From Candidatus Amesbacteria bacterium GW2011_GWA1_47_20 (GTDB lineage Bacteria > Patescibacteriota > Microgenomatia > CAZETR01 > Amesbacteraceae): a stretch of DNA of 54,801 nucleotides. A program made the translations under genes and the position numbers. This document shows, piece after piece, positions 1,937 through 35,188 of this stretch (position 1 is the stretch's first letter; every line of letters begins with the position of its first letter). Under the pieces are notes generated by a model that saw only the letters and a list, made by a program, of their open reading frames with translations, was not told the DNA's origin and did no database searches. The DNA lies in the NCBI GenBank assembly GCA_001002405.1, contig LCOA01000002.1, positions 1-54,801 of the forward strand. Reading direction: 5' to 3'.

Positions 1937-1981
1937 AGTACCAGTTTATTACATTTTAACAGCTTTTCAAGTACCAGTTTA
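1937..1981. repeat. 12-nt direct repeat AGTACCAGTTTA x2 (1937-1948 and 1970-1981)
   Basis: Exact copies 33 nt apart. One abuts the ATPase ATG and the other contains the GT4 stop codon. Confidence 0.8.
1943..1970 (-). promoter_or_regulatory. Possible internal promoter upstream of the AAA ATPase gene
   Basis: Minus strand: TTGAAA (1970-1965), N16, TAAACT (1948-1943), N6, ATG 1936. Confidence 0.3.
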
Positions 1982-2968
1982 GTACTTATTCAGCGCTTCC
2001 TGGTAAACTTGCAAAGTTTCGGCAGCTGCTTTGGCCCAAGAAAACTTGGTAGCTTGGGTCGGGCCATGGTTGGATTTGGCGTTCTTGATAGCTCTGGCCA
2101 TGTCTTTAATGTCGGTGGGGTCAAAGTAAGTAGCGGCATCGCCGGCGACTTCAGGAAGCGAGGAGGTGCGGCTACAAGCCACGGGGGTGGCACAGGCCAG
2201 AGCTTCCACCACCGGCAGGCCGAAACCATCGGCTAGGGACGGCTGGCAATAGACAGTGGCCAAATTGTAAATATCCACCAGTTCTGCATCCGCTACAAAT
2301 CCCAACCGCCGCACATTTTGCAACGACATACCCTGCAAATGCTTCAGCTCCGGGTGGGAGAGGTCCATTTTTTCGAGTTCCTTGGCCTGACGGCCAACCA
2401 TAACCAACGGCAGTTTGGCTAGCCGAGCGGCAGTGATTAAATTGGGAATGTTTTTGTTGTAGTTGATGTCACCAGGCAGGTGGTATTTGTTTTTGGGTTT
2501 GGAAACATGTTTGAATATGGGATCAGCGGCTTCATATATCAGTTTGAGCTTGGCGTGGGGGATACCCAGATACTTGTAGATAGTTTTAACGCAATGATAG
2601 GAAACGGTGATCACCCGATCGACGTTGGCCAAAGCTAGTTTCTGCAACTGCAGATTGAACCAGCCGCGGATCCCCGGAGGAAAATGATCAGGAAATTCTA
2701 ACGGCATCACATCGTGGATTGTGACTATTGTTTTGGCATTCTTGATAATAGGCAGGGTGTGTTTAAAAAGATCGAAGTAAGGATAATGGATAATTTCTAA
2801 TTGACCTAATTGATCTAATCGACCTAAAGAATCAACTTCCAATATTTCGACGCCAAAGTTCTTTGCTTGTTTTTTAAGCTCTGGCAAGAGACGGCGAGTG
2901 TAGAAACCTACTCCGCGGACAGCGTTGGCGTCATGAAGGGGAGTCGTAACAAAACCAATTTTTATCAT
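1979..2968 (-). CDS. GT4-family (Glycos_transf_1) glycosyltransferase
   Basis: C-terminal PSLADGFGLPVVEALACATPV (EX7E-type motif). Preferred start is ATG 2968, which forms an ATGA overlap with the upstream stop; the track start 2983 is TTG. Confidence 0.8.
   Translation of the reverse strand: MIKIGFVTTPLHDANAVRGVGFYTRRLLPELKKQAKNFGVEILEVDSLGRLDQLGQLEIIHYPYFDLFKHTLPIIKNAKTIVTIHDVMPLEFPDHFPPGIRGWFNLQLQKLALANVDRVITVSYHCVKTIYKYLGIPHAKLKLIYEAADPIFKHVSKPKNKYHLPGDINYNKNIPNLITAARLAKLPLVMVGRQAKELEKMDLSHPELKHLQGMSLQNVRRLGFVADAELVDIYNLATVYCQPSLADGFGLPVVEALACATPVACSRTSSLPEVAGDAATYFDPTDIKDMARAIKNAKSNHGPTQATKFSWAKAAAETLQVYQEALNKY
2792..2828. repeat. 37-nt element built on a 9-nt period (TAATTGACC-like x3), copy A, inside the GT4 gene
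   Basis: aatttctaattgacctaattgatctaatcgacctaaa is 35/37 identical to 34542-34578. Encodes SLGRLDQLGQLEI. Confidence 0.9.
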
Positions 2969-5408: not shown

Positions 5409-6977
5409 CTAGTTGCTGATTATTTTGAAAGCCGGGCTACTATTTGGAAAATTAATGGTTTTAACTATATTAACACCTACGTCGGGAATGTCTTCGGGAG
5501 CGGCTACGATGAGCGAGGAGTGAATGTCGCTGACTTTGGACCAGGGCGTATCAGCAAAATGGAATTTGGAGTAATCGCGAACAGTGGAGAAATTGTATTT
5601 GTCCCGGAAAGTGAGAGAGTGATGACCTTGGAACTGTTGGGGCGGGTATTTGGAATAAAAGAGGAAAAGAATGTAAGGCTGATCGTACTTGTCGGTAACT
5701 AAGATCTTTTCATACCTGTCCTGAACCGACCCCACGTAAGCTACCAACTCTTTGAAGCCGTACTCCCAGGCGTAAGGATAAGTTTGAGGATAGTGAACGT
5801 AATACTGGTGCAGATATCTAGTTACTTGCCATAAATACACAAATCCCAAGACACAAATTCCAAATAATTTCCAATGTTTTAAAGTTTCAAAAACACCAAC
5901 CGAAATAAGGATAGTTAAGGGAATAACCATGGCGTGAGCGCGCAGGGCGTGGGGGGTTTGAAAAGTGATGGCGGAAGCGAGAGGGGCTACTAATAACCAC
6001 AACCATACCAATTTGGTCTTTGGTCTTTGGTCTTTGGTCCTTAGTAGATAGGCCGCGCCGAGGGCTAGAAAGATAAAATCGGTGAAGTAGAGAAGGCCGG
6101 TTTCGGGAACGCGGTTGCGGGGAATGACGTCGCCGTTGACAAACAGGAAATTGCCGAAGAAATGGTCGGTGTAATTTTCTAGAAATTGAATGGTGTACAG
6201 AACAGGACGGTTGTGCAAAACACGGGATAAGGGCGTGCTCCACCCCGGATGCTGGCCGCGCAGCTCCTTGGCCCGATTGAGAGGACCCTCATCGGCGAGC
6301 AGGCCTACTCCGGAGAGACGGGAAGCGGCATTAGTAGTAACTAGGTTATAGATTAGAGGGATTAGGAGTAAGAAACCAATGACCGAAGCTGTAAAAATGC
6401 GTTTGGGGCGGTAGAAAAGAAATAGACCTAAACCCAGGAGAGGAACAGTGAGGCGAGCAGATTGATAAAAATACATAGACAGCGCAAAGCTCAAAACGCA
6501 AAGCTCAAAACGTTTCTTAAGGAAGAGCCAGACGCCGATAAGCATGAGAGTGGTGGCGACGTTGACCTCCCAGCCGCCGCGGGAGAAATGCAAGTGCCAG
6601 GGGCTGATGGCCAACAGCAGCGCCGCCAGTTGACCAGTTTGCCAGTTGATCAGTTCTTTGGTCAAAAGATATACAAAGAGGACGGCCAGGATGCCGAAGA
6701 GGGCGGAGGGGAGGCGGACGGCGAATTCGGTGAGACCGAATATTTTGATGAAGGGCATGAGCAAGTAGGCGTAACCCGCGGGTTTGAAATCGCCGAAAGA
6801 TTCCAGATTCACCGGCCAAGGATGACCGTGCTCATCCCGACCGGTCAGAAGTAACGAGTAAGCGTTGTAGCCCAGAGCGGCTTCGTCCGCGTTCAAGCCT
6901 GCCGGAAAATCGGCCAGCCGGTAAAGGCGCAAAAAGGCGGCTAAAATTAAGACGAAAATAAGAATTATTTTTTTCAT
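5409..6977 (-). CDS. GT39-like (PMT/ArnT-type, GT-C fold) membrane glycosyltransferase, paralog 1
   Basis: LNADEAALGYNAYSLLLTGRDEHGHPWPVNLESFGDFKPAGYAYL, then ISPWHLHFSRGGWEVN, about 11 TM segments and a C-terminal soluble domain. Confidence 0.8.
   Translation of the reverse strand: MKKIILIFVLILAAFLRLYRLADFPAGLNADEAALGYNAYSLLLTGRDEHGHPWPVNLESFGDFKPAGYAYLLMPFIKIFGLTEFAVRLPSALFGILAVLFVYLLTKELINWQTGQLAALLLAISPWHLHFSRGGWEVNVATTLMLIGVWLFLKKRFELCVLSFALSMYFYQSARLTVPLLGLGLFLFYRPKRIFTASVIGFLLLIPLIYNLVTTNAASRLSGVGLLADEGPLNRAKELRGQHPGWSTPLSRVLHNRPVLYTIQFLENYTDHFFGNFLFVNGDVIPRNRVPETGLLYFTDFIFLALGAAYLLRTKDQRPKTKLVWLWLLVAPLASAITFQTPHALRAHAMVIPLTILISVGVFETLKHWKLFGICVLGFVYLWQVTRYLHQYYVHYPQTYPYAWEYGFKELVAYVGSVQDRYEKILVTDKYDQPYILFLFYSKYPPQQFQGHHSLTFRDKYNFSTVRDYSKFHFADTPWSKVSDIHSSLIVAAPEDIPDVGVNIVKTINFPNSSPAFKIISN
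6013..6040. repeat. Heptanucleotide tandem repeat (TTGGTCT x3 plus TTGGTCC) in GT39-like paralog 1
   Basis: Read directly. Encodes TKDQRPKTK. Confidence 0.9.
6483..6512. repeat. Perfect 14-nt tandem duplication (CGCAAAGCTCAAAA x2) in GT39-like paralog 1
   Basis: Read directly. Encodes FELCVLSFAL. Confidence 0.9.
6626..6657. repeat. Octanucleotide tract (CCAGTTGA CCAGTTTG CCAGTTGA TCAGTTCT) in paralog 1
   Basis: Encodes INWQTGQL. A 27-nt core (6621-6647) is identical to 12628-12654. Confidence 0.85.
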
Positions 6978-8533
6978 GGCAGTCCCACCACCCGCAGGCC
7001 CGGTGCGCCATTGGGATATTTAATATCCCCGAGCATAATCAGATTGGGAATGGTGGCTAAATCAGACTCCGGCAGTTCATAGCGGTCACCGATCAAAATA
7101 GTGGAATTGAGGAGTCGGTCGTCGGGCAGAAAGAGTGGACGGAAAATAAATTTGCCGAAGCGATCTACGTGGCCCACGTCGCCGACGGGGCTAACAGCTA
7201 ACTGGCTAAATGGTTGATAATCCCGGGGGTCGATCTGCAAGTAAAAGAGAGTAAAAATATACGGCTGGCCAAGTTTGTCGGAAAAGATGACTTGCCGGTA
7301 TTGGTCTAGATGCTGTTTGACGATAGCCAGAACCGGTTTGTAAGGATATACCATGTCCACGGCGGTGAAATTGGAGGAATGAATATAGAATAAATCAAGA
7401 TAATAGACTAAGAAAAACAAGAGTATGAGAGTATAAGAGTATAAGAGGAGACGCCGACGAGACAATTGGGCTAGACCCATACCAGAAACAATGACTAGCG
7501 GCACGAGAAGCGGCAAGGAGCGGACGCCGGAAACGAGGTCGCGCGAAAGGGCGGAGGGCAAAGGAGCCAGGAGCAGCCAAGCAATGAGAAGTTTAGTTAG
7601 TGGGTTATTAGTTCGGAGTAAGACGACGAGTCCGATAAGAATTGTAAGGATTTCCGGGAGGTGGAAGTAGCCATAGTATGCAATTGAGTGGCGCAAATTC
7701 TGCCAGTCTCCGGCGAAGAATAAGAAATATGGGGAGAGGTGGTTTAGATATCTTTGAAGTACGCCCCTGCCCTGGTCTATTAGTTCTAAGTGAAAAAGAG
7801 AAAAGAGAAAAGGGTTACCATTGTCCTGACGTAGGATTTCAGCGACCGTGTCCGGACGGCGGGTGTAACTGAAGACGCTGAAGACTTTGAGCCGACCTGA
7901 TTGGGAAGCGAAACCCACCAGAATTGGAAGTATGAGTAAGAGTAAGAGGAAGAGGGGTTTGACCAGTAATTTTATGGCTGGGCGATAAATTAGCAAGAGA
8001 GTTAACATGAGAAGCGGAGTGAACATCTTGGCCCCCTGATAAGTCAGGAGCGTCAGGCCAAAGAAAAGGGCGGATGTCAGATAGCGGCGGCGGATGAACA
8101 ACAGTGTTGCCAAGGTCGTAAGGGTGAGTGCCACATTGGCCTCCCAGGCACCGCGGGAAAAATACAGCGACCAGGGGTTGATGGCCAGCAACCCGGCGGC
8201 AAAGACATTTCTGGTGAGCAAGTAAACTACGATAATAAGAAGTACCCCAAAAATGGCCGAGGGAAGACGAGTGGCGAATTCAGTTAAACCCAAAACGGAT
8301 ATTGAGGGGACAGCCAGGTAAGAATATAGAGCCGGCTTGTAATCGCCGAAGGATTTGAGAATCAAGGGCATGACTTGGGCGTATTCATCCCGGCCGGTCA
8401 AAAACAGCGAATAGGCGTTGTAGCCTAGAGCGGCCTCGTCCCAGGTAAAACCCAATGGCCGGGAGTCTAAGTGAAAAAGTCTTAGTCCAAGGCCAAGTAA
8501 AAGTATGAACGCAAGAATAATTCTATTTTTCAT
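6974..8533 (-). CDS. GT39-like GT-C membrane glycosyltransferase, paralog 2
   Basis: GFTWDEAALGYNAYSLFLTGRDEYAQVMPLILKSFGDYKPALYSYL. Start ATG 8533 (MKNRIILAF...) is preferred by analogy to the paralog N-termini; the track start is 8557. Confidence 0.8.
   Translation of the reverse strand: MKNRIILAFILLLGLGLRLFHLDSRPLGFTWDEAALGYNAYSLFLTGRDEYAQVMPLILKSFGDYKPALYSYLAVPSISVLGLTEFATRLPSAIFGVLLIIVVYLLTRNVFAAGLLAINPWSLYFSRGAWEANVALTLTTLATLLFIRRRYLTSALFFGLTLLTYQGAKMFTPLLMLTLLLIYRPAIKLLVKPLFLLLLLILPILVGFASQSGRLKVFSVFSYTRRPDTVAEILRQDNGNPFLFSLFHLELIDQGRGVLQRYLNHLSPYFLFFAGDWQNLRHSIAYYGYFHLPEILTILIGLVVLLRTNNPLTKLLIAWLLLAPLPSALSRDLVSGVRSLPLLVPLVIVSGMGLAQLSRRRLLLYSYTLILLFFLVYYLDLFYIHSSNFTAVDMVYPYKPVLAIVKQHLDQYRQVIFSDKLGQPYIFTLFYLQIDPRDYQPFSQLAVSPVGDVGHVDRFGKFIFRPLFLPDDRLLNSTILIGDRYELPESDLATIPNLIMLGDIKYPNGAPGLRVVGLP
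7421..7447. repeat. Octanucleotide tract (GAGTATGA GAGTATAA GAGTATAA GAG) in paralog 2
   Basis: Read directly. Encodes LLLYSYTLIL. Confidence 0.8.
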
Positions 8534-10001
8534 AAACAATAAAGGCCGGTTGACCATCGAGGAAATTAAATGTGGTTATCTCCCGGCCAGAAATTTTACT
8601 CTCGGGGCTGGTGACAACGAGCGTGTTTGGTTTAAACGTCAGTTGGCCAATTTCCCAATCGTTGACAAAAGTAAATTTATCCAGAGCGTTGACCCAGTAC
8701 CAGTTGGCGTGGTAATCCCATTGCTTGCGGAGTTGAAAATCGGCCGGGTTCCAGGGCCAGAAATAGGCCACAAATTCATGCGGTTCGCCATATTTTTTGG
8801 TAAAGATAATCTGATCGTAATCGGAATAGCGCTGTTTGATAAATTGAACTACTTTAGAGTAACCATATTGCCAAGACTGCGAATAGTTATTACGATAACT
8901 ATTCGCGGATACTAGATAGTAGATAGTAGATATTAGGAGACCCACGAAGAAAAGAGCCTTAACATTACGGCCGAAGCGGTCCAGACCATGAGCGATTAAG
9001 AGCATAGACAGAGGCAGCATAGGAATGGCCCGAAGGACATGAGGCGCATCTCGCGTCAAACTACCGGCAATCGGCGCAAGTAACAGCCATGCCCAGGAAA
9101 TTTTATTCAGCTTTAATAACCCTAGGTAAAAAAAGGGCAAACTGACCAAATAAAGCAGGCCGAAGTTTTGGATGCTGAACTGATAATGATCGCCGCCTTT
9201 GAGGAAGAGAAAGTTGGGAGAGAAGTAACTTAAGTAATTTTGACCGAAACGGTAGAGAAAATAAGTGGCCTTGTTGTACAGCAGCCGGCCCCCAGGACGG
9301 GATTGCAGTTGATCGATTTGGGCAATGGCACCGGAATCCAGGATGGTCAACCAGCTTAGTCTAGCTTGACCGGAAGGAGAGAGAAGTTGGATAACCATGG
9401 GGATAAATAAGAAAGCTGTTAGCAGATAGCTAATAGTCGTTAGCTTGGGACGATGGAGAAAAAGATAGGCGAGTAAAAACAACGGGCTGAAGACGCGGGC
9501 GGAATTGTAAGCCCAGACGGAAAGCCCCAGAAATAAGATGCCCAAATTTGTCTTGCGGACCAGCAAACAGCAAATGCCTATGGCAATAAATAATGCACCC
9601 ACATTGGCTTCCAGAGCAATACGGGATATCCACCAGGTCCAAGGGGAAATGGCGACCAAGACGGCTGAAGTGAGGCCAACGAAGGGAGAAGCCAGCCGCC
9701 AGCCCAAAAGATAGGTTATGATGATGAGTAACGTGCCGAAGACGATTGACGGCAGACGAACGAAAAAGGGAGAAATAGTGGCCAGGTAAACGTAGATGGG
9801 TAATTTGTAGTCTCCAAAGCTTCTGAAAATTGTGGGCAAGATCGTCCCCCACTCGTCCCGACCGGTCTGAAGAAGCGAATACGCGTTGTAACCCAAAGAA
9901 ACTTCGTCCCAATTGAGGCTGGGAGGAAGGAAGTTGCTGGCTACCAGCCGCAGAATCAGGCCGGCCGCCGCAATAAGTAAAAGCCACTTAACGTGAGACA
10001 T
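8523..10001 (-). CDS. GT39-like GT-C membrane glycosyltransferase, paralog 3
   Basis: SLNWDEVSLGYNAYSLLQTGRDEWGTILPTIFRSFGDYKLPIYVYL. ATG 10001. 46-nt overlap with the upstream gene end. Confidence 0.8.
   Translation of the reverse strand: MSHVKWLLLIAAAGLILRLVASNFLPPSLNWDEVSLGYNAYSLLQTGRDEWGTILPTIFRSFGDYKLPIYVYLATISPFFVRLPSIVFGTLLIIITYLLGWRLASPFVGLTSAVLVAISPWTWWISRIALEANVGALFIAIGICCLLVRKTNLGILFLGLSVWAYNSARVFSPLFLLAYLFLHRPKLTTISYLLTAFLFIPMVIQLLSPSGQARLSWLTILDSGAIAQIDQLQSRPGGRLLYNKATYFLYRFGQNYLSYFSPNFLFLKGGDHYQFSIQNFGLLYLVSLPFFYLGLLKLNKISWAWLLLAPIAGSLTRDAPHVLRAIPMLPLSMLLIAHGLDRFGRNVKALFFVGLLISTIYYLVSANSYRNNYSQSWQYGYSKVVQFIKQRYSDYDQIIFTKKYGEPHEFVAYFWPWNPADFQLRKQWDYHANWYWVNALDKFTFVNDWEIGQLTFKPNTLVVTSPESKISGREITTFNFLDGQPAFIVYEK
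8913..8936. repeat. Heptanucleotide tract (TAGATAG TAGATAG TAGATAT TAG) in paralog 3
   Basis: Read directly. Encodes LISTIYYLV. Confidence 0.85.
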
Positions 10002-11455
10002 GCCAAAGCCACCAGACTGGTAATGTTGCCGATGGTGCGGACGGGGGTATCGGTAAACTTCAGATTAATTTGGGTGGCTAGCGGCACGCGGGCAATGATT
10101 AGGCCCATGGGGCCGGAGGGAAACAGCTCGACTTCAGCTTTCCAGCCCGGAAAATAGACAATCGGATATTGAATTTTTCGGTAGGAGTCGGTAGTGAGAA
10201 GTACCTGTGGCCCGGTAGGCGCAAAAGACGTGGGTAACTCGGAGGCGGAACGCGGCCAAAAATCGTTTAGGGCAGAAGAGCGCTGTTCGTCCCAGAGCGG
10301 GCCGGAAAATTGCTCACGGTCTGTGATGCTGCGCCAGATGTCTGGCTTGAAAAAGCCAGCGTTAAGCAAGAGCAGAAGAGCAAGAGAGCAGGAGAGTATA
10401 AGTTTATGCGAAACCACTTTGACTATAGCACCGGAGGAGAGGGCCAGAAAGAAGGAGGCGGGGCCCAAAAAGCGCCAAGGAAACTGGACATAAGCCAAAG
10501 GAGGAAAAAGCTTCCAAATAAATTCCGACTTGCCGTGAGTGAGAAAAACGGCAAAGAAGCCAAAGAGGGTAAACACGAGGGACTTTTTGCGAAGAAGAAG
10601 AAATAAGGGAACGAGCCATTGCAGGTAGCCCACAGAAAAACTCATGGTGTCGTTGGGGCCCCAGACGGAGCCGCCGTAGCCCCAAAAGCGGGAAACAAAC
10701 AGCTGCTTGAGAGTGGTCCAATGCAATTGATATGAGTAATAGTCAGTGGTGGTGCGGTTTAAAGTGACCAGATGACTTTCGAAAATCACCGGGAGTAGAT
10801 AAAAAGCGCTTAATAGAAAAACTGCGGCCCCGGCACCCAACAGTTGAAAAACGGGGATGGGGAATTTTCTTAACGCCCAAAAACCTAGGAAAGGAGCGAT
10901 CATGAGAGCCGAGAGATTGTGGGTAATGACCAGAATAGTGGCCGCAATGATCAAACCCCATAGATCACGCAGGCGCCGTCGGTCTAAAAAATTATCCAGA
11001 AAAAGAAAGATGAAAGGAAAAAGAGCCAAAGCATACGCCTCATTGAGCGAGCCACGGACCCACACGTCTACCGCCCGGTAAGGGGCGTAGACATAAAACA
11101 TGGCTGCCACCAGACTCCCTGGGTTGCCCCAATACTTTTTGCCGAGCAAGTACATGCCCACTGCCGAAACTAGGAGCGTGAGAATGAAATTGGCTTTGAC
11201 GGAGTCGATAATTTGCAATCCAAAGATATGAAATGCCTGACCGATCCAGTAAGGAAACTGGCCGTAGAAGTTAAAGACCGGCTCGCCGTAGCCCATCCCG
11301 GCGTCCGGCGCCCAACGGCAAGGAAATGCCTGACACTTGCTAAATTCAAACTGACGGAAGACGTGGAAATCGTGCATCGTAAAAATGCCGGAGCGGAACA
11401 TGAGAGAAAATGAGGGGATTAAGAGGATTAAGCAGATTAAGAGAAATTTGTTCAT
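9956..11455 (-). CDS. PTPS-related/YfhO-like polytopic membrane protein (putative GT-C-like)
   Basis: N-terminus MHDFHVFRQFEFSKCQAFPCRWAPDAGMGYGEPVFNFYGQFPYW matches the signature I associate with PF10131-type membrane proteins. Paralog of 33530-35188. ATGA overlap at 11452-11455. Confidence 0.55.
   Translation of the reverse strand: MNKFLLICLILLIPSFSLMFRSGIFTMHDFHVFRQFEFSKCQAFPCRWAPDAGMGYGEPVFNFYGQFPYWIGQAFHIFGLQIIDSVKANFILTLLVSAVGMYLLGKKYWGNPGSLVAAMFYVYAPYRAVDVWVRGSLNEAYALALFPFIFLFLDNFLDRRRLRDLWGLIIAATILVITHNLSALMIAPFLGFWALRKFPIPVFQLLGAGAAVFLLSAFYLLPVIFESHLVTLNRTTTDYYSYQLHWTTLKQLFVSRFWGYGGSVWGPNDTMSFSVGYLQWLVPLFLLLRKKSLVFTLFGFFAVFLTHGKSEFIWKLFPPLAYVQFPWRFLGPASFFLALSSGAIVKVVSHKLILSCSLALLLLLNAGFFKPDIWRSITDREQFSGPLWDEQRSSALNDFWPRSASELPTSFAPTGPQVLLTTDSYRKIQYPIVYFPGWKAEVELFPSGPMGLIIARVPLATQINLKFTDTPVRTIGNITSLVALACLTLSGFYLLRRPA
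11417..11443. repeat. In-frame 9-nt tract (GATTAAGAG GATTAAGCA GATTAAGAG)
   Basis: Encodes LLI-CLI-LLI in the N-terminal TM segment of 9956-11455. Confidence 0.8.
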
Positions 11456-18362: not shown

Positions 18363-19960
18363 TTTCTGGCAACCAGATACAAAATAGGCTGGTTGTAGGC
18401 GTTGGTGCTGGTAAACAGGACTTGGATATTGTCGGGAGGAGTACGGCGCCAATCCCAATCGCCGGCCACATTGTCCCGCTGGGAAATAACATACAAACTG
18501 TTGGGAAGCAAAGATTCCATCCAGTTTGATTTATTGAAGTTGCCAAAGAAGTATTTACCGTCTAAAGAAAATCCGTCGTAATTGGGAACAATGTTGACCT
18601 GAGGCTGATCCAGGGTGAATTGGCGATGAAATTTGGCCGGTGAGTAACTCGTCCAAAACAGGAAGCGAATTAAAGACGGCTCATAAGTGTTGTTGATAAA
18701 GACGCGGGAGTAATTGGGGGCCAGACGAGCCAGCTCGGTCATAGCCTGCTGAAATCCCACATTCCACCACCGCCAGGAAGATTTGGCGTAATGGGCAACG
18801 TAGTAATGGGCCAGGTACACAAAATAAGAAATAAAGAATACAAGGAATAAGATATTAAGAACCCGAGGTAATTTGCGGGTAACTAATACTACGCCGGCAC
18901 CGGTAGCGACAGCTAAGGGTGGAAGCATTAAAAACAAGCGAGTGGCGTGGTAGCCCCCGTCGGAAGTAAGAGCGGCTGGGAGCGGGGCTAAAAACAACCA
19001 AGTCAACCACAACCATTGCTTACGGGAAGCCAGATACCACAGGCCGATTAGCACGAAAGGGAAAGAGATGGGTAAAAGCTCGCCGACGATCTGCATGCTC
19101 TGGCGGTAATCGGGGTCGCCGCGAATGAATAAAAAGTCAGTGGAAAACGGCCGGAGATAATTAGCTACGACAGCAGAAGCGTAAGTTTCGAGTTTGTTGT
19201 GCCATAAACGCCCGTCTTCGGCCTGGAGAAGGTTTAAGTTTTTGAAAATTTCCGGATTGGCAAAAATGCTTAATCCCCCGAAGCGGCCCCGGGCGGGACC
19301 AGAGATAATATTAAAAATTAAGGGAACAAGAAGTAAAGAAAAAAGAAGTAAGGAAATAAGTTTGGGGCGAACGCGGGTAAGAAAAATGAGTGTCACAAAC
19401 CATAAAGGAACAAAAAGGACGGCGGTGCTGTAGGTGTACATCGAAAGGGCAAAGGGCAAAGGACAAAGGGCAAAACGACGTTTGAGAAAGAGCAAAGTGC
19501 CAAGCATGACCAGGTCGAGCATGAAAACTACTTCGTAAGCGGCCCGCGAGTAGTAGATGTGCCAGGGAGTCACCGCCAAAACCAGAGAGCAGAAGAGCGA
19601 GAGAGTATAAGAGCGAGAGATATGATAAACGAGGAGAAATAAAATGAGCGACCCAAGAGTACCAAAAATAACTTCAGGCAAACGGACGCCCCAGACGGAA
19701 TTTCCCAGGGCGGCGATGGTAGGAACTGTGGCGTACATGAGAAGTGGGGCGCGCCATTCCGCCAGAGAATGAATGTAAGTAGGCAAGATCTGGCCATATA
19801 AGTCCCTTCCGGTTTGCAGAAGTGACCGGGCCTGGTATCCCACGTCAACCTCATCACCAAACAATTCCGGGGGGGCGATCTGCAGCAGCCCAACACGTAA
19901 ACCTAGGCTAAGTGCTAAAATGAGGCTTAGAATCCAACTCATGCTATCTGTCATTATCAT
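18359..19960 (-). CDS. GT39-like GT-C membrane glycosyltransferase, paralog 6 (operon head)
   Basis: PPELFGDEVDVGYQARSLLQTGRDLYGQILPTYIHSLAEWRAPLLMY plus VTPWHIYYSRAAYEV. Possible starts at 19960, 19954 or 19942 (MSWILSL...). Confidence 0.75.
   Translation of the reverse strand: MIMTDSMSWILSLILALSLGLRVGLLQIAPPELFGDEVDVGYQARSLLQTGRDLYGQILPTYIHSLAEWRAPLLMYATVPTIAALGNSVWGVRLPEVIFGTLGSLILFLLVYHISRSYTLSLFCSLVLAVTPWHIYYSRAAYEVVFMLDLVMLGTLLFLKRRFALCPLPFALSMYTYSTAVLFVPLWFVTLIFLTRVRPKLISLLLFSLLLVPLIFNIISGPARGRFGGLSIFANPEIFKNLNLLQAEDGRLWHNKLETYASAVVANYLRPFSTDFLFIRGDPDYRQSMQIVGELLPISFPFVLIGLWYLASRKQWLWLTWLFLAPLPAALTSDGGYHATRLFLMLPPLAVATGAGVVLVTRKLPRVLNILFLVFFISYFVYLAHYYVAHYAKSSWRWWNVGFQQAMTELARLAPNYSRVFINNTYEPSLIRFLFWTSYSPAKFHRQFTLDQPQVNIVPNYDGFSLDGKYFFGNFNKSNWMESLLPNSLYVISQRDNVAGDWDWRRTPPDNIQVLFTSTNAYNQPILYLVARK
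19444..19478. repeat. Heptanucleotide tract (AAAGGGC AAAGGGC AAAGGAC AAAGGGC AAAACGA) in paralog 6
   Basis: Encodes FALCPLPFAL. Same alignment position as the 14-nt duplication at 6483-6512. Confidence 0.85.
19928..19933 (+). promoter_or_regulatory. -10-like box for the GT2 gene at 19941
   Basis: TAGAAT, N7, ATG 19941. It lies inside the N-terminal codons of the divergent gene. Confidence 0.3.
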
Positions 19961-23336: not shown

Positions 23337-24111
23337 ATTACACGAAATATTTTCGATATTTTTTGGCTGGTCCAGGTAATAAACCATAGTAAATAATGCT
23401 TGAGCGGGCCGTTATACCAGAGAGAGGCAGCGGCGTGATATTTTTGAGCGGCACCACCGGATTTGGCTGAACTTTGTCCATGTTCGTGGACAATGGTAAT
23501 CCCGGGGTGGAAAATTATTTTCATTCCTGCCTGACGGAGGCGGCGGCAATAATCCATATCTTCGTAGTAAATAAATACTTTCTCGGTAAATTTGCCTATC
23601 TTTACGATCGTACGTTTGGACAAGAACATACAGGCGCCAGAGATAGCGTTGACAGCAACGGGCTGGCTGCCCGTTGGGGTGTATTTTTGAGTCAGGCCTT
23701 TTTGGCCGAGCCAGTATTCGGCTCGGGAAAAACGGACCCCTGGGGAGTACCGTCAGGGTCAAGGAATTTGGGACCGAGGACGCCCACGTCGGAGTGAGAT
23801 TTGAGATATGCGATGGCTTTGGTAAAAAAATCTTTGGGTAGGAGGGTGTCGGGATTAAGAATCAAGATGTAATCCCCCGTCGCCCGCTCTAATCCCTGAT
23901 TCCACGCCCGGGGTACACCAACATTGGTTTTGTTTTGAATAAATTTGACTTTCTTTGGATGGATGGGGGTGGAAGAAGCATTGTCGATGACAATTATTTC
24001 CAGATTTGGATACTTGGTGGCTCGAATTGAGGCTAGGCACCGAGCCAACGAATCGGCTACGTTCCAATTGACAACAATTACACTAATTGAATTTGGCAAA
24101 GAGGTTTTCAT
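23333..24111 (-). pseudogene. GT2 glycosyltransferase interrupted by a single -1 frame change at an A5 run
   Basis: The N-terminal ORF 23692-24111 (SVIVVNWN, VIDNASS, ILNPDT) ends at TGA 23692-23694. The remainder (AVNAISGACMFLSKRT...YYEDMDYCRRLRQAGMKI) continues in the -1 frame. The frames meet at C-AAA-AAG (23704-23698). All expected motifs are present. Confidence 0.7.
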
Positions 24112-24913
24112 CTGTAACTTTTAAATAAGACCTTTCGGAGAGCCTGAATCTCACTATATTAGGCAAGTGCTCCAGGGCCATGAGGACAGGGCGGATAAAT
24201 CCTGGATGGAAGAAGATCCTGGCTAACAGTGCAGGTAGATGCTGGCTAAGACTAAATGTGAGACTTAAATAGTTAGGAGGAAGAGCTTTTTTGTAAGTAG
24301 ATTCAGGATGCGGGTGAGAAATTATTGCTTTGGGTTCCCAAATTATTAGGTACCCTCTTTTTTGAGCCCGGAAACCTATATCCAGATCCTCAAAGTATCC
24401 AGGCGTGAATAATGTGTCCAATCCCCCCAGTTCCTTCCAAATAGATTTGCGAAAGGCAGCACCTCCACCTGAACCCCAGAGAGAATAATGAATTTTGTTG
24501 TCTATCTCCCCGTTCGTGAATCCCAGAAATCCATTTTTAAAGCTGCCCTTAGCCCAAGATTGCGTTTGAGCGTTAAAGGTTACTGAAAACAGTTTTTTAT
24601 CTTTGAAATGGGGAAGCATGTTTTTTAAAAGGTCTGGGTGCGGGCTGGCGTCTTGATTCAAAAGGATGACGACGTCTCCCGTTGCCTGTCGAAAACCATC
24701 ATTAACAGTTTGAGGGAAGCGAGTATTGTGAAAATGACGAACTAGTTTAATTTGGGAATAATTTCGAGATAGAAAACTAACGGTATTGTCTGTAGATGCG
24801 TCGTCGACAATTATCACTTCATCAGCCTCTAGTTTCATGACCTGGGGAAGGTTTTTGGCTAATATCCTCTGCCCGTTGAAAGCGGGAATGACTACTGAAA
24901 CTTTAAAATCCAT
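24083..24913 (-). CDS. GT2-family glycosyltransferase
   Basis: VSVVIPAFNGQ, IIVDDASTDNT, LLNQDA and GYFEDLDIGFRAQKRGY. Confidence 0.8.
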   Translation of the reverse strand: MDFKVSVVIPAFNGQRILAKNLPQVMKLEADEVIIVDDASTDNTVSFLSRNYSQIKLVRHFHNTRFPQTVNDGFRQATGDVVILLNQDASPHPDLLKNMLPHFKDKKLFSVTFNAQTQSWAKGSFKNGFLGFTNGEIDNKIHYSLWGSGGGAAFRKSIWKELGGLDTLFTPGYFEDLDIGFRAQKRGYLIIWEPKAIISHPHPESTYKKALPPNYLSLTFSLSQHLPALLARIFFHPGFIRPVLMALEHLPNIVRFRLSERSYLKVTDENLFAKFN

Positions 24914-26830: not shown

Positions 26831-27852
26831 ATCAGCTTTGAAAATTGAGAGTTAAAAACTTGCGCTGAGAAAAGCCTACTCCTTTCCTGGGCTTGTTTGG
26901 CAATTCTTTGAAGTCTTTGTTCATCTTTTGACAAAGAGACAGTGTCCTTCACCAGTTGATTGATCGAATTCCATAGATACCCCGATTGCCCAGGAACGAC
27001 TGTCTCCAGATGGCCTCCGGAATTAGTGACCAGGGGGACTGTCCCGGCCGCCATAGCTTCCACAGTGGTGATACCGAAGTGCTCCATTCTTTCCGGGTGA
27101 GCGGCAGAACTTACCCCGAAACCTGTTGCCGACCAAAAAATTTTGGCTGAACCTAAAAGTTCTCTAATCTTTTCCAAAGAAGGGTTAGAAATAATTTTGA
27201 TAGGCAGCTTTTGAACTAAATCCCGATAGTTCTTCAAAAGATCTCGGTCTTTCGACCCACCTGCTAAAACTAACCGCCAATCTGGCAAGAGCGGGAGAAG
27301 TTGAGAAAACGCTTTGATTAATATATCTTGACGCTTGGAATGTAACCCGTGAGCTAATCTGCCAATGCCCACAATCATATTTTGTTTAGGTAAGGGTTTG
27401 AAAAGTTTGACGGCCACGGGAGGATAGACAACGTGTGAATCGATACCATAAACCCGGTCAATGACTGACTTAGTAAATAGCGAGTTGCAGACTACGGTGT
27501 AGAAGCGGATTTTAAAACGGTTGGCCAGCGTCCCACAGCCTTGCCAATGCGCCGGAATTTGCATATGAATGATTGTTTTTTTGGCAAATGATACAGGAAT
27601 GCTTCCATCACTAACCCAAAATATAAGTTCATAGTTCATAGTTGAGAGTTGATAGTTACCCGGGAAGGGAATGAATCGGGCAGAGTGCAATTTGACACCA
27701 AACCTATCTTTTATTTTGCGGGTGAAATCGGTGGGCCACCAAAAATCAACTTGATATCCCCGACTTTCAAGAAATTGCGCCACTGCCGCTGAATACCTTT
27801 CTCCACCTCCTAAAGTATCTAAATATGGATCATAAATGGCGGCCCGTTTCAT
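26827..27852 (-). CDS. GT4-family (Glycos_transf_1) glycosyltransferase
   Basis: EHFGITTVEAMAAGTVPLVTNSGG motif. ATGA overlap at 27849-27852. Confidence 0.8.
   Translation of the reverse strand: MKRAAIYDPYLDTLGGGERYSAAVAQFLESRGYQVDFWWPTDFTRKIKDRFGVKLHSARFIPFPGNYQLSTMNYELIFWVSDGSIPVSFAKKTIIHMQIPAHWQGCGTLANRFKIRFYTVVCNSLFTKSVIDRVYGIDSHVVYPPVAVKLFKPLPKQNMIVGIGRLAHGLHSKRQDILIKAFSQLLPLLPDWRLVLAGGSKDRDLLKNYRDLVQKLPIKIISNPSLEKIRELLGSAKIFWSATGFGVSSAAHPERMEHFGITTVEAMAAGTVPLVTNSGGHLETVVPGQSGYLWNSINQLVKDTVSLSKDEQRLQRIAKQAQERSRLFSAQVFNSQFSKLI
27626..27657. repeat. Heptanucleotide tract (AGTTCAT AGTTCAT AGTTGAG AGTTGAT AGTT) in a GT4 gene
   Basis: Encodes YQLSTMNYEL. Confidence 0.85.
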
Positions 27853-28598
27853 TTTTTAACCAATTGCATTTCCCACAGGCGGGCGTAGATAACGAAAGAA
27901 TTAAACACCTGAAATACTCCGTCAATGACACCTTCGACGCCATCGCGCCAGGCGAACAGCTTGACAAAGCGCAGCCAAAACTCGGTGAACATGACCCGGA
28001 CAAATCTCCACCAAGACATGCGGGGATGGCCGGTAGCCAAGCGCAACCGGGCTTCGTAGGTCGTAAAGTCTAAAGTTTTATTCAACATTGAAGTCAAATC
28101 CCGGTGGGAATAATGGACTAGTTCATGATTCATGGTTCGTAATTCACCTGAAAAAACCGGTTGTTCGTGAAGCTCGCCCACGTACCTCTGGAGGGCAGAT
28201 TTTTTAAACAGTCTAATGACCCTGTCGCCGCCCCAACCGCCGAAATGCATTTCCCGGCCCAAATATATATTTTTGCGGGGGATTTGATACACTTGAACGG
28301 AATCAGGAGAGGACATAATTTGTTCGATCTCTTTTTTGAGTAAAGGAGTTACTCGTTCATCGGCGTCTACATACAAAATCCAACTGCCACGGGCGGCTTT
28401 GAGTCCGAGATTTCGCCGGGTAGCATAACTATCCTCCCTACATGTCACAATTTTGGCTCGATGGGATTCGGCTATGTCAACGGTAGCGTCGGTGCTGCCG
28501 CTATCAACGACAACGATTTCGTCAGAAAAAGCCAGAGACAGGAGACATTCTCCAATCATGCTTTCTTCGTTTTTGGCAATGATGATGCTAGTTAACAT
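27849..28598 (-). CDS. GT2-family glycosyltransferase (WaaE/KdtX-like subtype)
   Basis: SIIIAKNEESMI, VVVDSGSTDAT and YVDADE. ATG 28598 preferred over the track start 28613. Confidence 0.85.
   Translation of the reverse strand: MLTSIIIAKNEESMIGECLLSLAFSDEIVVVDSGSTDATVDIAESHRAKIVTCREDSYATRRNLGLKAARGSWILYVDADERVTPLLKKEIEQIMSSPDSVQVYQIPRKNIYLGREMHFGGWGGDRVIRLFKKSALQRYVGELHEQPVFSGELRTMNHELVHYSHRDLTSMLNKTLDFTTYEARLRLATGHPRMSWWRFVRVMFTEFWLRFVKLFAWRDGVEGVIDGVFQVFNSFVIYARLWEMQLVKK
28121..28148. repeat. Degenerate heptanucleotide tract (GTTCATG ATTCATG GTTCGTA ATTCACC) in a GT2 gene
   Basis: Encodes GELRTMNHEL. The unit is related to that of 27626-27657. Confidence 0.7.
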
Positions 28599-29446
28599 AA
28601 CTACCCCGGCCAAACCGGCCTAAATAAAAATCAACCACTCCCTTTCTTTGCCAGGGACGGCCCGAGACCAGATGCTGAAGTGACTGACGAAAAAGGGCCA
28701 GTTTGGTGCGCGGCGGCGCCCAGCGCAGACCAAAAAGCAAGCGGTTGCGGGTGGTGTAATAGTCGGCCAGCGGTGAACCTATGCCAGAAGCCTGACCAAC
28801 TCGATGCCAGACAATACTTTCCGGTACATAATAGAGTTTCCAGCCCGCGCGGGAAGCCCTGACGCAGAGATCAGTTTCCTCGTAATACAAAAAATATTTA
28901 GGGTCAATCAGGCCAATTTGTTCCAGAACTTGCTTGGCCGATGTCTACTTCGTCAATACCTATATGTTGAGTAATGAGGTTAGCCCAATCGATCTTGCCT
29001 CCGGCATACCACAGCACGTGGCCCAGCTGGGACGGGGTATACCTGGTTTTGTGAAACTCGAAGCCTTTGGCAAAGTAACATTTGGAACCAAAAATGCCTC
29101 CCATAGGATGGTCGGAGGCGGCATCAGCCAACGCCTGCAGACTCCCGGGATGAACCTGGACGTCGGGGTTTACAATCCAGACAAAGTCCGAGCCGTGGTC
29201 CAAAGCGTACTGCAGGCCCACGTTATTGCCGCCGGCGTAGCCTAAATTTTGCCCCGTTTGGATAAGTTTGAATTTGGGGAACAGCTTTTTAATTAGCTTA
29301 ACCGAATTATCCGTAGAACCATTGTCTACTACCACGATTTCCACTTGATGAGGACGGGTGGCCAGACGACCAAGCGACCGCAGACAGGGAGCGATATATT
29401 TACCCGCGTTCCAATTAAGAACGACTACCGTAATTTTCATATCCAT
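28588..29446 (-). pseudogene. GT2 glycosyltransferase with internal deletion plus frameshift
   Basis: The N-terminal ORF 28904-29446 (VVVLNWN, VVDNGSTDNS, IVNPDV ... GIDEVDIGQ) stops at 28904. The C-terminal part (KQVLEQIGLIDPKYFLYYEETDLCVRASRAGWKL) is in another frame. The roughly 17-aa segment that normally lies between GQ and the VxExIG motif, including the SGA/GAC motif, is absent. Confidence 0.65.
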
Positions 29447-33338: not shown

Positions 33339-33366
33339 TTGACAAAATATTGACGGATGATATAAT
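33339..33366 (+). promoter_or_regulatory. Near-consensus sigma70-type promoter
   Basis: TTGACA (33339-33344), N16, TATAAT (33361-33366); ATG follows at 33374. Confidence 0.55.
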
Positions 33367-33373
33367 TTCGATT

Positions 33374-33571
33374 ATGAAAAATGAACTGGCTCAATTGTTG
33401 GCAGTATTGAACAAGGGGGTGATGACAGAAGATTTGAAAGAAGCCGTTGTTGGGGGAAGGATCAGTGAAGAAGCGGCTGCCAGACTTGCCCAGGCGGATC
33501 ATAGAGGTGGAAGTAGCTCAGTAGACGCCTTAAAGAGTAATGCTGCGGTGCCGTCTACCACGGAAGCCTAA
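33374..33571 (+). CDS. Candidate leaderless 65-aa helical protein (or a noncoding/antisense transcript)
   Basis: ATG 33374 lies 7 nt after a consensus TTGACA-N16-TATAAT promoter. Translation MKNELAQLLAVLNKGVMTEDLKEAVVGGRISEEAAARLAQADH... Its 3' end overlaps the convergent gene by 42 nt. Confidence 0.3.
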   Translation: MKNELAQLLAVLNKGVMTEDLKEAVVGGRISEEAAARLAQADHRGGSSSVDALKSNAAVPSTTEA

Positions 33572-35188
33572 AAAGAGTAATAAGCTCCAAGAAATTGTAG
33601 ATAATATGTTTCCAATGGTTCTGATGGGAGTATTGGTGAGACGAGCGGTGACGGTGTGTTTGCCGGGAGATAAATCGACTTGCATACGACCTAGGATCTT
33701 GTCACGAGAAGGGTCAATAGTTACTTCTTTACCATCTACCCAGATCTTCCAGCCAGGGAAATAGTAGGTCTGCAGTTCGGCTACGGCCGTAGGGGTCCAG
33801 GTGGTGATTAAGTATTCCTGACGATTGGATTTTTTGACTAGAGTTGAATAAATACCATCCCCCGCAACAAATTTTATGTCCTCTAAGGCCGGATCGGCTG
33901 GGGGTTGCGGAGCCCAGATGGGCAGATAATCAAAGATGCCGGAAGTAATTAACAGCTGCCAGGATTTGCCGGAAAACTTTTTGGTATCGGTCATGTCTGG
34001 GTACCATTGGCGGGGATGGAAGTAGTTCGAGTTAATTAAGATGACTAAGCAGACTAAGATGATTAAGGTTCTTTTAGAAATAATTAGGGCTATGGCCCCA
34101 GAAAGAAATGAGGCAGCAAAAATTGAGATGGTTAAGAACCGCCAAGGAAATTGCAGAAACTCAAGTGGAGGAAAAGCCTTCCATATGGGCGTGGCTTTGA
34201 AGTGGGACATAAACAAAAAACTCAAAGTGCCAAGTGCAAAAAACAAAACTAATGAGAAATGTTTTTTAAGATTTTTAGTGAATGGGAGAAGAACTAGGAT
34301 GATGGCAGGGATAATCCAGTGCAGGTAGCCCAGGGCGAAACTCATGGTATCTCCCCGACCGTAAACAGATTCTCCATAACCCCAATTGATACGCAAAAAT
34401 ATCTGGTTTAAATCAAGAAAGTGAGCTAAGTAGTTGAAGTAACCGGCGGTTAGAGTCCAGACGGAAACGAATTTGGTTTCGAAAAGGACGGGGAGAGTGA
34501 AGAAGGCGGCCAGGCCGAGAGCCCAGAGGGCGGAGAAGAATAAATTTCTAATTGACCTAATTGAACTAATTGACCTAAATTTAAATGTCCAGAAAAGACA
34601 CCAGATGACCAGGACCGGGGCGAAGATCATGAGAATGGGATTGTGGGATAGCATCAAACCGGCAACAGATATGGCTACGAGGGGAATGTATTTTGCCCCA
34701 TCGTGAATGAGTTTGTAGGAAAAATAGAAAATGGCTGGAAAGAGCGCTAGAGCCCAGAATTCATTCATGGCTCCCCTAACGTAAAAATCCACCGAGTGAT
34801 ACGGTGCGTAAGTGTAGAATGCGGCGGCTACCAGACCGCCCAGTCTACCCCAAAACTCTCTGCCCAAAAAATACATAGAAGCAGCCGCGGTGATAAAACC
34901 CAAGACACCTACGGATTTGACTACGTCGATATATTGAAAGCCCAGCCAGCGGAAAGGCTGGCCAATAAGATACGGCAGGGGTGGATAATAATTAAAAAGC
35001 GGGTAACCGTAACCATAACCTAAATCCAGACTCCAGCGGCAAGGAAACTGGAGGTCTACCAAACATTGATCCATCTTTTGCTGGCGGATGGACTGCATAT
35101 CATCATGCATAGAGAAATAACCCCTCTGCACCAGCGGAGCAAAGGCGGGGAGAATGAGAAGCAAGAGCAAGACCAAGTCCTTTTTCAT
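33530..35188 (-). CDS. PTPS-related/YfhO-like polytopic membrane protein (paralog of 9956-11455)
   Basis: MHDDMQSIRQQKMDQCLVDLQFPCRWSLDLGYGYGYPLFNYYPPLPYLIGQPF and the C-terminal YYFPGWKIWVDGKEV. ATGA overlap at 35185-35188. Confidence 0.55.
   Translation of the reverse strand: MKKDLVLLLLLILPAFAPLVQRGYFSMHDDMQSIRQQKMDQCLVDLQFPCRWSLDLGYGYGYPLFNYYPPLPYLIGQPFRWLGFQYIDVVKSVGVLGFITAAASMYFLGREFWGRLGGLVAAAFYTYAPYHSVDFYVRGAMNEFWALALFPAIFYFSYKLIHDGAKYIPLVAISVAGLMLSHNPILMIFAPVLVIWCLFWTFKFRSISSIRSIRNLFFSALWALGLAAFFTLPVLFETKFVSVWTLTAGYFNYLAHFLDLNQIFLRINWGYGESVYGRGDTMSFALGYLHWIIPAIILVLLPFTKNLKKHFSLVLFFALGTLSFLFMSHFKATPIWKAFPPLEFLQFPWRFLTISIFAASFLSGAIALIISKRTLIILVCLVILINSNYFHPRQWYPDMTDTKKFSGKSWQLLITSGIFDYLPIWAPQPPADPALEDIKFVAGDGIYSTLVKKSNRQEYLITTWTPTAVAELQTYYFPGWKIWVDGKEVTIDPSRDKILGRMQVDLSPGKHTVTARLTNTPIRTIGNILSTISWSLLLFLGFRGRRHRSITL
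34542..34578. repeat. 37-nt element, copy B, inside the PTPS-related membrane protein gene
   Basis: aatttctaattgacctaattgaactaattgacctaaa, same orientation as copy A. Encodes FRSISSIRSIRN in a different reading frame. Confidence 0.9.

Follow-up and report, generated by a model that had tools for sequence, protein, structure and literature searches.

A 37-nt repeat translated in two frames in two unrelated genes of a Candidatus Amesbacteria genome, and the dispersed hairpin repeat family to which it relates

How does one short string of DNA come to lie inside two unrelated genes, where it is read in different frames, and what keeps it alike in both? The question is raised by a 37-nucleotide (nt) repeat found twice in a 54,801-nt stretch of contig LCOA01000002.1 (the whole of this stretch is called the window below) from Candidatus Amesbacteria GW2011_GWA1_47_20, which belongs to the candidate phyla radiation (CPR). 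One copy lies in a gene for a GT4 glycosyltransferase and the other in a gene for a polytopic membrane protein. The two genes and the two copies, each of which is described as a single arm for reasons given below, are as follows.

1979..2968, minus strand: host gene 1, GT4 glycosyltransferase (P0121, 329 aa), with Pfam Glycos_transf_1 and Glyco_transf_4.
2792..2828, minus strand: element copy A, single arm in the GT4 gene, 37-mer AATTTCTAATTGACCTAATTGATCTAATCGACCTAAA.
2820-2828, 2811-2819, 2802-2810 and 2792-2801 (plus-strand coordinates): sense-strand units of copy A, in this order TTTAGGTCG ATTAGATCA ATTAGGTCA ATTAGAAATT.
33530..35188, minus strand: host gene 2, polytopic PTPS_related membrane protein, 552 aa, with a weak Pfam match below the curated cut-off.
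34543..34579, minus strand: element copy B, single arm in the PTPS_related membrane protein gene, translated FRSISSIRSIRN.
Within copy B: sense-strand units TTTAGGTCA ATTAGTTCA ATTAGGTCA ATTAGAAATT.

The two copies share 35 of 37 positions (2 mismatches), have the same orientation and lie 31,751 nt apart from start to start. A preliminary description of the window had already reported this identity and orientation, with the second copy placed one base off, at 34542-34578. The site at 34543-34579 is the only other match to the 37-mer in the window with ≤3 mismatches, and 100 dinucleotide-preserving shuffles gave no match to the 37-mer at all. The feature is real and goes beyond chance. On the plus strand of the window both arms are in the CTAAT orientation, and a search of the window for a partner arm or further copies found none. 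Tandem Repeats Finder (TRF) assigned both sites a period of 9 with 3.4 copies, in agreement with the threefold 9-nt period first noticed in the preliminary description.

Translation of the repeat differs between the two genes, again as first described. The GT4 protein reads SLGRLDQLGQLEI across the repeat, the part encoded by copy A being (S)LGRLDQLGQLEI, and the membrane protein reads FRSISSIRSIRN, with the two reading frames one apart. The element has a G+C content of 27% vs 47% for the window, and it uses codons that are rare by window usage, such as TTA (18% of Leu codons), AGG (6% of Arg codons) and TCA (11% of Ser codons). Given the two peptides and the codon usage of the window, the probability of the observed codon series is 9e-8 in the GT4 gene and 3e-9 in the membrane protein gene. 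These values support the earlier claim that the 35/37 identity lies at the nucleotide level and does not come from protein homology.

Where the copies fall in the two proteins was examined on predicted structures. In the AlphaFold model of the GT4 protein (pLDDT 80.7), residues 46-58 form a loop between strands 40-45 and 59-62. In the model of the membrane protein (pLDDT 85.3), residues 203-216, which are rich in Arg and Lys, comprise the end of helix 183-203, a turn at 204-207 and the start of helix 208-240. Both copies are thus placed in a loop or turn of confident models, copy A in a surface loop and copy B at a positively charged turn between helices, and both are tolerant places.

The membrane protein encoded at 33530-35188 matches P0001, a protein of Candidatus Amesbacteria GW2011, with 100% identity, and its paralog at 9956-11455 has RKFPIPVFQLL at the repeat site. 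The membrane protein is 5 residues longer there, which had been taken as consistent with an in-frame insertion. The extra length stands; compared with orthologs, however, the difference amounts to one additional 9-nt unit, which is consistent with slippage, and no 37-nt insert is seen. Relative to the paralog, the site is partly replaced and shows no clean 37-nt insertion; nor is 37 a multiple of 3.

The repeat is part of a wider family. A scan of one genome per bacterial or archaeal species with the pattern ATTAGNTCRATTAGNTCRATTAG (sense-strand form) gave at least 119 loci. By our own estimate about 1 match is expected at random, under a model that tandem repeats break, and homology is therefore based on shared flanks and architecture and not on counts. 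Unrelated 9-nt tandem repeats with TTCA, CTCG or TTCG units (e.g. L027, L039, L051, L054) were left out of the family statistics. The matches listed come mainly from CPR, Bacteroidota, Omnitrophota and Chlamydiota, and from Ignavibacteria too. By depositor label, the CPR among the matches listed include Amesbacteria, Shapirobacteria, Gottesmanbacteria, Curtissbacteria and Daviesbacteria, as well as Berkelbacteria, Nealsonbacteria, Portnoybacteria, Saccharibacteria and Paceibacteria. About 105 of the 121 matches listed lie outside long open reading frames (ORFs).

The family string can be written as (ATTAG[G/A]TCA)n-ATTAGAAATT. In 39 of the 87 non-redundant copies of the GGTCA/GATCA type listed, AAATT comes after the final ATTAG, against about 1 in 1024 by chance, and in 20 the arm is preceded by TT[TA]AGAA; two units are present in 69 and three in 9. 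The apparent flanks of the window copies, AATTTC... and ...CCTAAA, are conserved ends of the family, because they recur in copies elsewhere.

Outside the window, many copies form part of a longer hairpin. When 220 nt upstream of the arms were inspected, the full element proved to be a long imperfect palindrome with the following layout.

5' arm: AAATTTCTAATT(TCTAATT)n(GACCTAATT)nGACCTAAA, then CCCAAT- or GACCAAT-type heptamers.
Centre of the element: variable.
3' arm, mirror of the 5' arm: ...ATTGGTC ATTGGGC ATTGATTAGAA (ATTAGGTCA)n ATTAGAAATT.

The units of the arms are anchored on ATTAG or ATTGG and include TTAGAAA (7 nt), TTAGGTCAA or TTAGATCAA (9 nt), and TTGGTCA or TTGGGAT (7 nt). A typical outer arm ends in ...(ATTAGGTCA)2-3 ATTAGAAATT, and the terminal inverted repeats are AAATTTCTAAT... 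and ...ATTAGAAATTT. Delimited full segments are mostly ~110-240 nt long. An inverted-arm motif lies ≤200 nt upstream in 41 of the 89 non-redundant copies listed, at a median distance of 111 nt. These 41 paired copies fold with a median z of -5.5, and 95% of them have z < -3. For example, the copy in L050, flanked by rpmF-like and plsX-like genes, has a folding energy of -56.5 kcal/mol (z = -7.2). The remaining copies are without those arm motifs within 200 nt. Some of them are clear single arms, e.g. TTTAGAA ATTAGGTCA ATTAGGTCA ATTAGAAATT, and a few of the copies scored as unpaired have partner arms made of other units. The statement in the preliminary description that the element is not palindromic is accordingly wrong for the family; the two window copies are single arms without a partner.

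Copies in other genes are also translated. In a Patescibacteria metagenome-assembled genome (MAG), L046 3360-3510 carries a full but diverged hairpin in frame in a Glu/Leu/Phe/Val (ELFV) dehydrogenase gene, where the insert comprises ~50 residues and splits the Pfam dehydrogenase match into two stretches. Further in-frame genic copies were found in a Wzy_C-like membrane protein and in an Amesbacteria methyltransferase-like protein. The element is thus not confined to the two sites in the window.

One set of copies stands apart. At least 18 Bacteroidota loci (MAG066 where titled), nearly all at contig ends, have in common the arm with ~40 nt on its upstream side and 61 nt on its downstream side, beyond which they diverge (L002, L011, L023, L031, L044, L056, L063, L068, L070, L074, L086, L091, L101-L103, L106, L108 and L110). 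Their arms have 2 or 3 units, varying by copy. The shared sequence is a multi-copy element at which the assembly breaks.

Searches outside cellular genomes gave little. A blastn search of the full element against plasmids and phages gave no match and the scan pattern matched only 6 viral contigs; nothing here hints at a phage origin. Literature searches by sequence string and by concept found no description of this hairpin repeat family.

Both window copies have counterparts in orthologs. In each of seven orthologs of the membrane protein, at 56-82% protein identity, the DNA has AAATTTAGGTCAATTAG...GTCAATTAGAAATTT or something very near to it, and their elements have 88-97% nucleotide identity. 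In the GT4 family, 11/120 orthologs read SLGQL[DE]QLGQLEI, one of them with four units; the metagenome orthologs L126, L127, L128 and L130 carry TTTAGGTCAATTAGA[T/G]CAATTAGGTCAATTAGAAATT, with 92-97% nucleotide identity. Identity to the window is 0.88-0.97 within the element, compared with 0.58-0.75 in the rest of the membrane protein gene and 0.63-0.67 in the rest of the GT4 gene. At identical residues the same codon is used in 9/10 to 12/12 cases inside the element vs 38-51% outside, and this holds in both gene families. Both copies are therefore old, and their DNA is conserved much more closely than the proteins call for. Neither is a recent insertion. The preliminary description had proposed a small mobile or templated element that tolerates translation. 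Dispersal over many genomes and the in-frame genic copies agree with this proposal, except that the insertion is not recent, being shared by orthologs at 56-82% identity. The outcome that would have spoken against the proposal, an element confined to two sites whose residues are conserved just as protein, is not what is seen: there are other sites, and the conservation extends past the protein level.

The number of units changes in steps of 9 nt and ranges from 1 to 3 in the membrane protein gene and from 3 to 4 in the GT4 gene. The translated repeats are LGQ/LDQ in GT4 and RSI in the membrane protein, and the reading frame is kept when units are gained or lost because the unit is 9 nt long. 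Two-unit orthologs of the membrane protein read KFRSIRSIRN, and three-unit forms read FRSIRLIRSIRN, FRSISLIRSIRN and FRSISSIRSIRN. The closest clade of membrane-protein orthologs (P0002, P0003, P0006, P0008 and P0009) has an unrelated-looking KLNRL... segment instead. L214, which was assembled independently, matches the window over 16.2 kb with 99.88% identity. The sole gap in that stretch removes precisely 18 nt, or two units, of the element, which leaves 1 unit vs 3 in the window and reads FKFRSIRNLF. Other tandem arrays in the 21-kb overlap with this assembly show no change. Unit number therefore probably changes on short time scales, collapse of the repeat during assembly being a less likely alternative.

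From the observed family membership, the palindromic architecture of the family, the translation in frame in loops, the age, the conservation as DNA and the polymorphism in unit number, we infer an origin and a mode of maintenance. The explanation that we favour, with about even confidence, is that each 37-mer is one arm of a dispersed AT-rich palindromic repeat family, carried as an in-frame translated passenger and held near the consensus by a process at the DNA level. The arms would have been inserted or captured in frame at sites that already resembled the end of the repeat (in GT4, GAAATT..TTAGAAATT, encoding EI...LEI). Like Rickettsia palindromic elements (RPEs), the copies would be passengers that serve the proteins in no specific way, and they would be tolerated in loops. 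Changes in unit number would arise by replication slippage. What holds the sequence would be a process that acts on the DNA and is linked to the family, either templated repair or gene conversion with other copies as donors or else re-acquisition time and again, and not selection on the proteins.

Several observations weigh against this explanation. The family is low in copy number in this lineage, with 2 copies in the 54.8-kb window; in 689 kb of sequence around the orthologs the motif is confined to these two gene sites, and a search of 710 kb turned up just four other arm-like clusters. With so few donors, frequent gene conversion becomes less plausible. The distribution within gene trees is patchy, with a Fitch minimum of 11 changes for 12 carriers in the membrane protein family and 7 changes for 11 carriers in the GT4 family; carriers of the membrane copy fall in one large clade and are patchy inside it. 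If the copies were neutral passengers, they should decay more quickly than the genes around them, yet they are far better conserved, which fits nucleotide selection. No transposase was found linked to the elements at the 119 loci listed, and inspection by eye of the element ends, whose AT-richness blurs the boundaries, revealed no evident target-site duplication. Near-identical units across phyla are also left unexplained.

The low copy number and the conservation keep the strongest alternative a serious one; we give it clearly less credence and consider it somewhat unlikely. The repeat would be a functional cis-acting DNA or RNA site that overlaps the coding sequence, is recognised by a factor conserved across phyla and is under purifying nucleotide selection. 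The intergenic versions would be hairpins, and in the gene-dense glycosylation cluster single arms would be fitted into tolerant protein loops. Synonymous sites are near-invariant inside the element while about half of the other synonymous sites have changed in the same orthologs, the same units recur across phyla, and the low copy number in the lineage counts against homogenisation by conversion. Every genic copy seen has the ATTAG orientation on the sense strand, and among the intergenic matches listed convergent gene pairs outnumber divergent ones by 15 to 5 (with crude gene calls), which hints at gene 3' ends. The site is nevertheless dispensable, since it is missing from the five orthologs of the closest membrane-protein clade and is reduced to 1 unit vs 3 in the near-identical strain. 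Rfam searches at gathering and permissive thresholds gave no family match, only tRNA and chance miRNA-like matches. The local mRNA folds at the two window copies are unstructured (z = +0.7 and +1.4), and the full hairpins fold with no bias in energy between sense and antisense, i.e. none toward the transcribed strand, so there is no sign of selection at the RNA level. A promoter-like match was seen at only one copy, where it is antisense and not above shuffles, no terminator signal exceeded chance either, and no candidate binding factor was identified. The fuller claim that (ATTAGGTCA)n-ATTAGAAATT is a cis-acting signal read across CPR, Omnitrophota, Bacteroidota and Chlamydiota, and hence a true overlapping code with the LGQ and RSI peptides as by-products, is in our judgement unlikely.

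Much less probable again is the independent growth of a 9-nt array in each gene by slippage from AT-rich codons, with the resemblance of the two arrays due to convergence. Some observations favour this reading. TRF detected 35 arrays in the window vs 8.6 +/- 3.6 in dinucleotide shuffles, and 27 arrays with periods 7, 8, 9 and their doubles vs 4.0 in shuffles; changes in unit number are documented for the element itself. The GT4 loop between strands 2 and 3 of the N-terminal domain is a hot spot of 7-9-nt tandem repeats across orthologs, and many different units occur there. Some belong to the vocabulary of the family (GGGATTTG, GAAATTA, AAATTGT) and others do not, such as ACATACA (x5), AACTATC (x4) and AACTCAC; GGGATTTGCGATTT, AGCAATT and AAACTCA were found in addition. 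Slippage does not account, however, for two frames that share 35 of 37 positions, the non-repeated ends (TTTAGG... and ...ATTAGAAATT) among them, nor for the same ends in 39/87 copies elsewhere among the matches listed. Nor does it explain why the unit stays constant across orthologs whose synonymous sites have diverged.

Two further possibilities are disfavoured. Two 37-nt direct repeats in the same orientation, 31,751 nt apart, could bound a 31.7-kb mobile or excisable island as att-like sites, which is very improbable because both host genes are intact, each copy is carried independently by many orthologs on other contigs, none of the segment's long ORFs stood out as an integrase, and the gene order around the membrane protein gene is alike in L206, L209, L212 and L214. 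An assembly or library artefact, for which unexplained deletions of 56, 44 and 21 nt elsewhere relative to a near-identical assembly might speak, is hardly credible when assemblies made independently (ENA, JGI, Logan and NCBI) have these strings at matching codons and the variation is structured by whole units.

The deletions just mentioned affect GT2 genes and one of the two host genes. Near position 2470, the GT4 gene of the window is short of 21 nt for a near-invariant strand, KKFVLYV, that P0246, a protein of the same species, has. Relative to the L214 assembly (99.9-100% identical), the window lacks 56 nt at ~28933/28934 and 44 nt at ~24259, leaving split or frameshifted GT2 genes at 28588-28890 + 28904-29446 and at ~23692-24913. 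These 56-, 44- and 21-nt losses are either real deletions or errors in the window assembly. The 267-nt gap between the minus-strand genes 31830-33263 and 33530-35188 contains a near-consensus promoter-like string on the plus strand (33340-33380), composed of TTGACA, 16 nt and TATAAT and followed by the ATG of a small plus-strand ORF; its direction is opposite to that of the cluster.

Short tandem arrays are much more frequent in the coding regions of the window than expected (the 35 vs 8.6 +/- 3.6 given above), for example at 6012-6039 (TTTGGTC x4, perfect), 7419-7447, 19444-19474, 27626-27657, 30775-30801 and 44369-44398. The period is 7, 8 or 9 in most of them, and of these 7 and 8 are not multiples of 3. 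In GT4 orthologs, arrays of 7-8 nt units, differing from lineage to lineage, occur in the loop just before the IIHYP motif (L131, L133-L135, L137-L141, L148, L150, L154, L156, L160, L193 and L195). They are possible phase-variation sites, because a change of one unit shifts the frame early in the enzyme. Period-8 arrays AAGAGTAT / AAGAGCAG, 71-86% alike, were found in three membrane glycosyltransferase-like genes (7412-7455, 10369-10412 and 19586-19621) and may represent a second tandem unit shared between different genes.

If the description given here is true, CPR and several mostly uncultured phyla share a hairpin repeat family made of short tandem units. The pattern in the window, one DNA string in two frames and two proteins that is conserved beyond the need of either protein, is rare, and it makes the question of passenger vs nucleic-acid signal testable. 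In practical terms, the arms are a source of length polymorphism in enzymes of surface glycans, assemblies break at them (in one MAG, at no fewer than 18 contig ends), and gene calling and alignment of CPR genomes can be misled by them.

Compared with known systems, some classes do not fit. CRISPR repeats (28-37 nt, with spacers of 25-50 nt) are excluded, as the two copies lie 31,751 nt apart and inside genes. DNA uptake sequences (USS/DUS) occur roughly once per 1-2 kb, and the density here, 2 copies in 54.8 kb and two orthologous gene sites in 689 kb, is far from that. Contingency loci are simple-sequence repeats in surface-glycan genes. The window copies resemble them in being tandem repeats in genes of a glycosylation cluster and in differing in unit number between near-identical strains. 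The 9-nt unit, however, keeps the frame in all variants seen, so that the length of a loop changes and no on/off switch results.

Bacterial MITEs (miniature inverted-repeat transposable elements; Correia and Nezha are examples) have a small size, a high AT content, no coding capacity and terminal inverted repeats. The present family likewise includes small AT-rich non-coding elements with inverted ends AAATTTCTAAT / ATTAGAAATTT, with at least 18 copies in one Bacteroidota MAG. It differs in having an interior of tandem repeats and in the lack of a visible target-site duplication; no parent insertion sequence was found, although no genome-wide search for one was made.

Repetitive extragenic palindromic (REP) sequences and their doublets (REPINs) consist of inverted short repeats that form a hairpin with a spacer, are mostly extragenic, are mobilised by RAYT transposases, and have singlets that are read as remnants (PMC3116915, PMC3733652). 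Inverted doublets forming hairpins are found in 41/89 of the present copies, singlets occur as well, and the copies are mostly extragenic. The present family differs in its low copy number in the lineage and in having translated genic copies. The REP unit is defined as an imperfect palindrome of 20-40 nt headed by GTAG or CGTC, and the present arm fails this definition, being built as a direct tandem array that contains neither a palindrome nor such a head. A gene for a Y1 transposase (Y1_Tnp, IS200-like, PF01797), the type to which RAYTs belong, lies near a membrane-protein ortholog at L211 2718-3410, and homologs of it (44-47% identity) lie directly upstream of GT4 orthologs at L161 5225-5905, L180 660-1340 and L186 1534-2211; a tblastn search found no homolog of it at the 119 element loci listed.

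In the build from tandem units, the nearest analogue is found in cyanobacteria, where the phyla differ from those here: heptamers of the short tandemly repeated repetitive (STRR) type, together with small dispersed repeats. These were reportedly described by Mazel in 1990 and Elhai in 2008 as tandem heptamer arrays, including TTGGTCA, that often form intergenic hairpins, with very small dispersed repeats nested inside them. To our knowledge, neither the 9-nt GGTCAATTA unit nor in-frame genic copies have been described for STRR.

In behaviour, the closest likeness is to RPEs, which are said to have been described as 'selfish DNA in protein-coding genes'. Both are dispersed hairpin repeats of ~100-150 nt that occur between genes and in frame in unrelated genes, where they are translated in tolerant surface regions. 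The likeness is one of behaviour and not of membership, the host here being Candidatus Amesbacteria. The present arms are built of 7-9-nt tandem units and vary in length by whole units, and the window copies are single arms and not whole palindromes, the long hairpin (median z = -5.5) being a trait of the family. RPEs are found in one genus, whereas the present family spans several phyla, and its genic copies are not decaying but are better conserved than the genes that host them.

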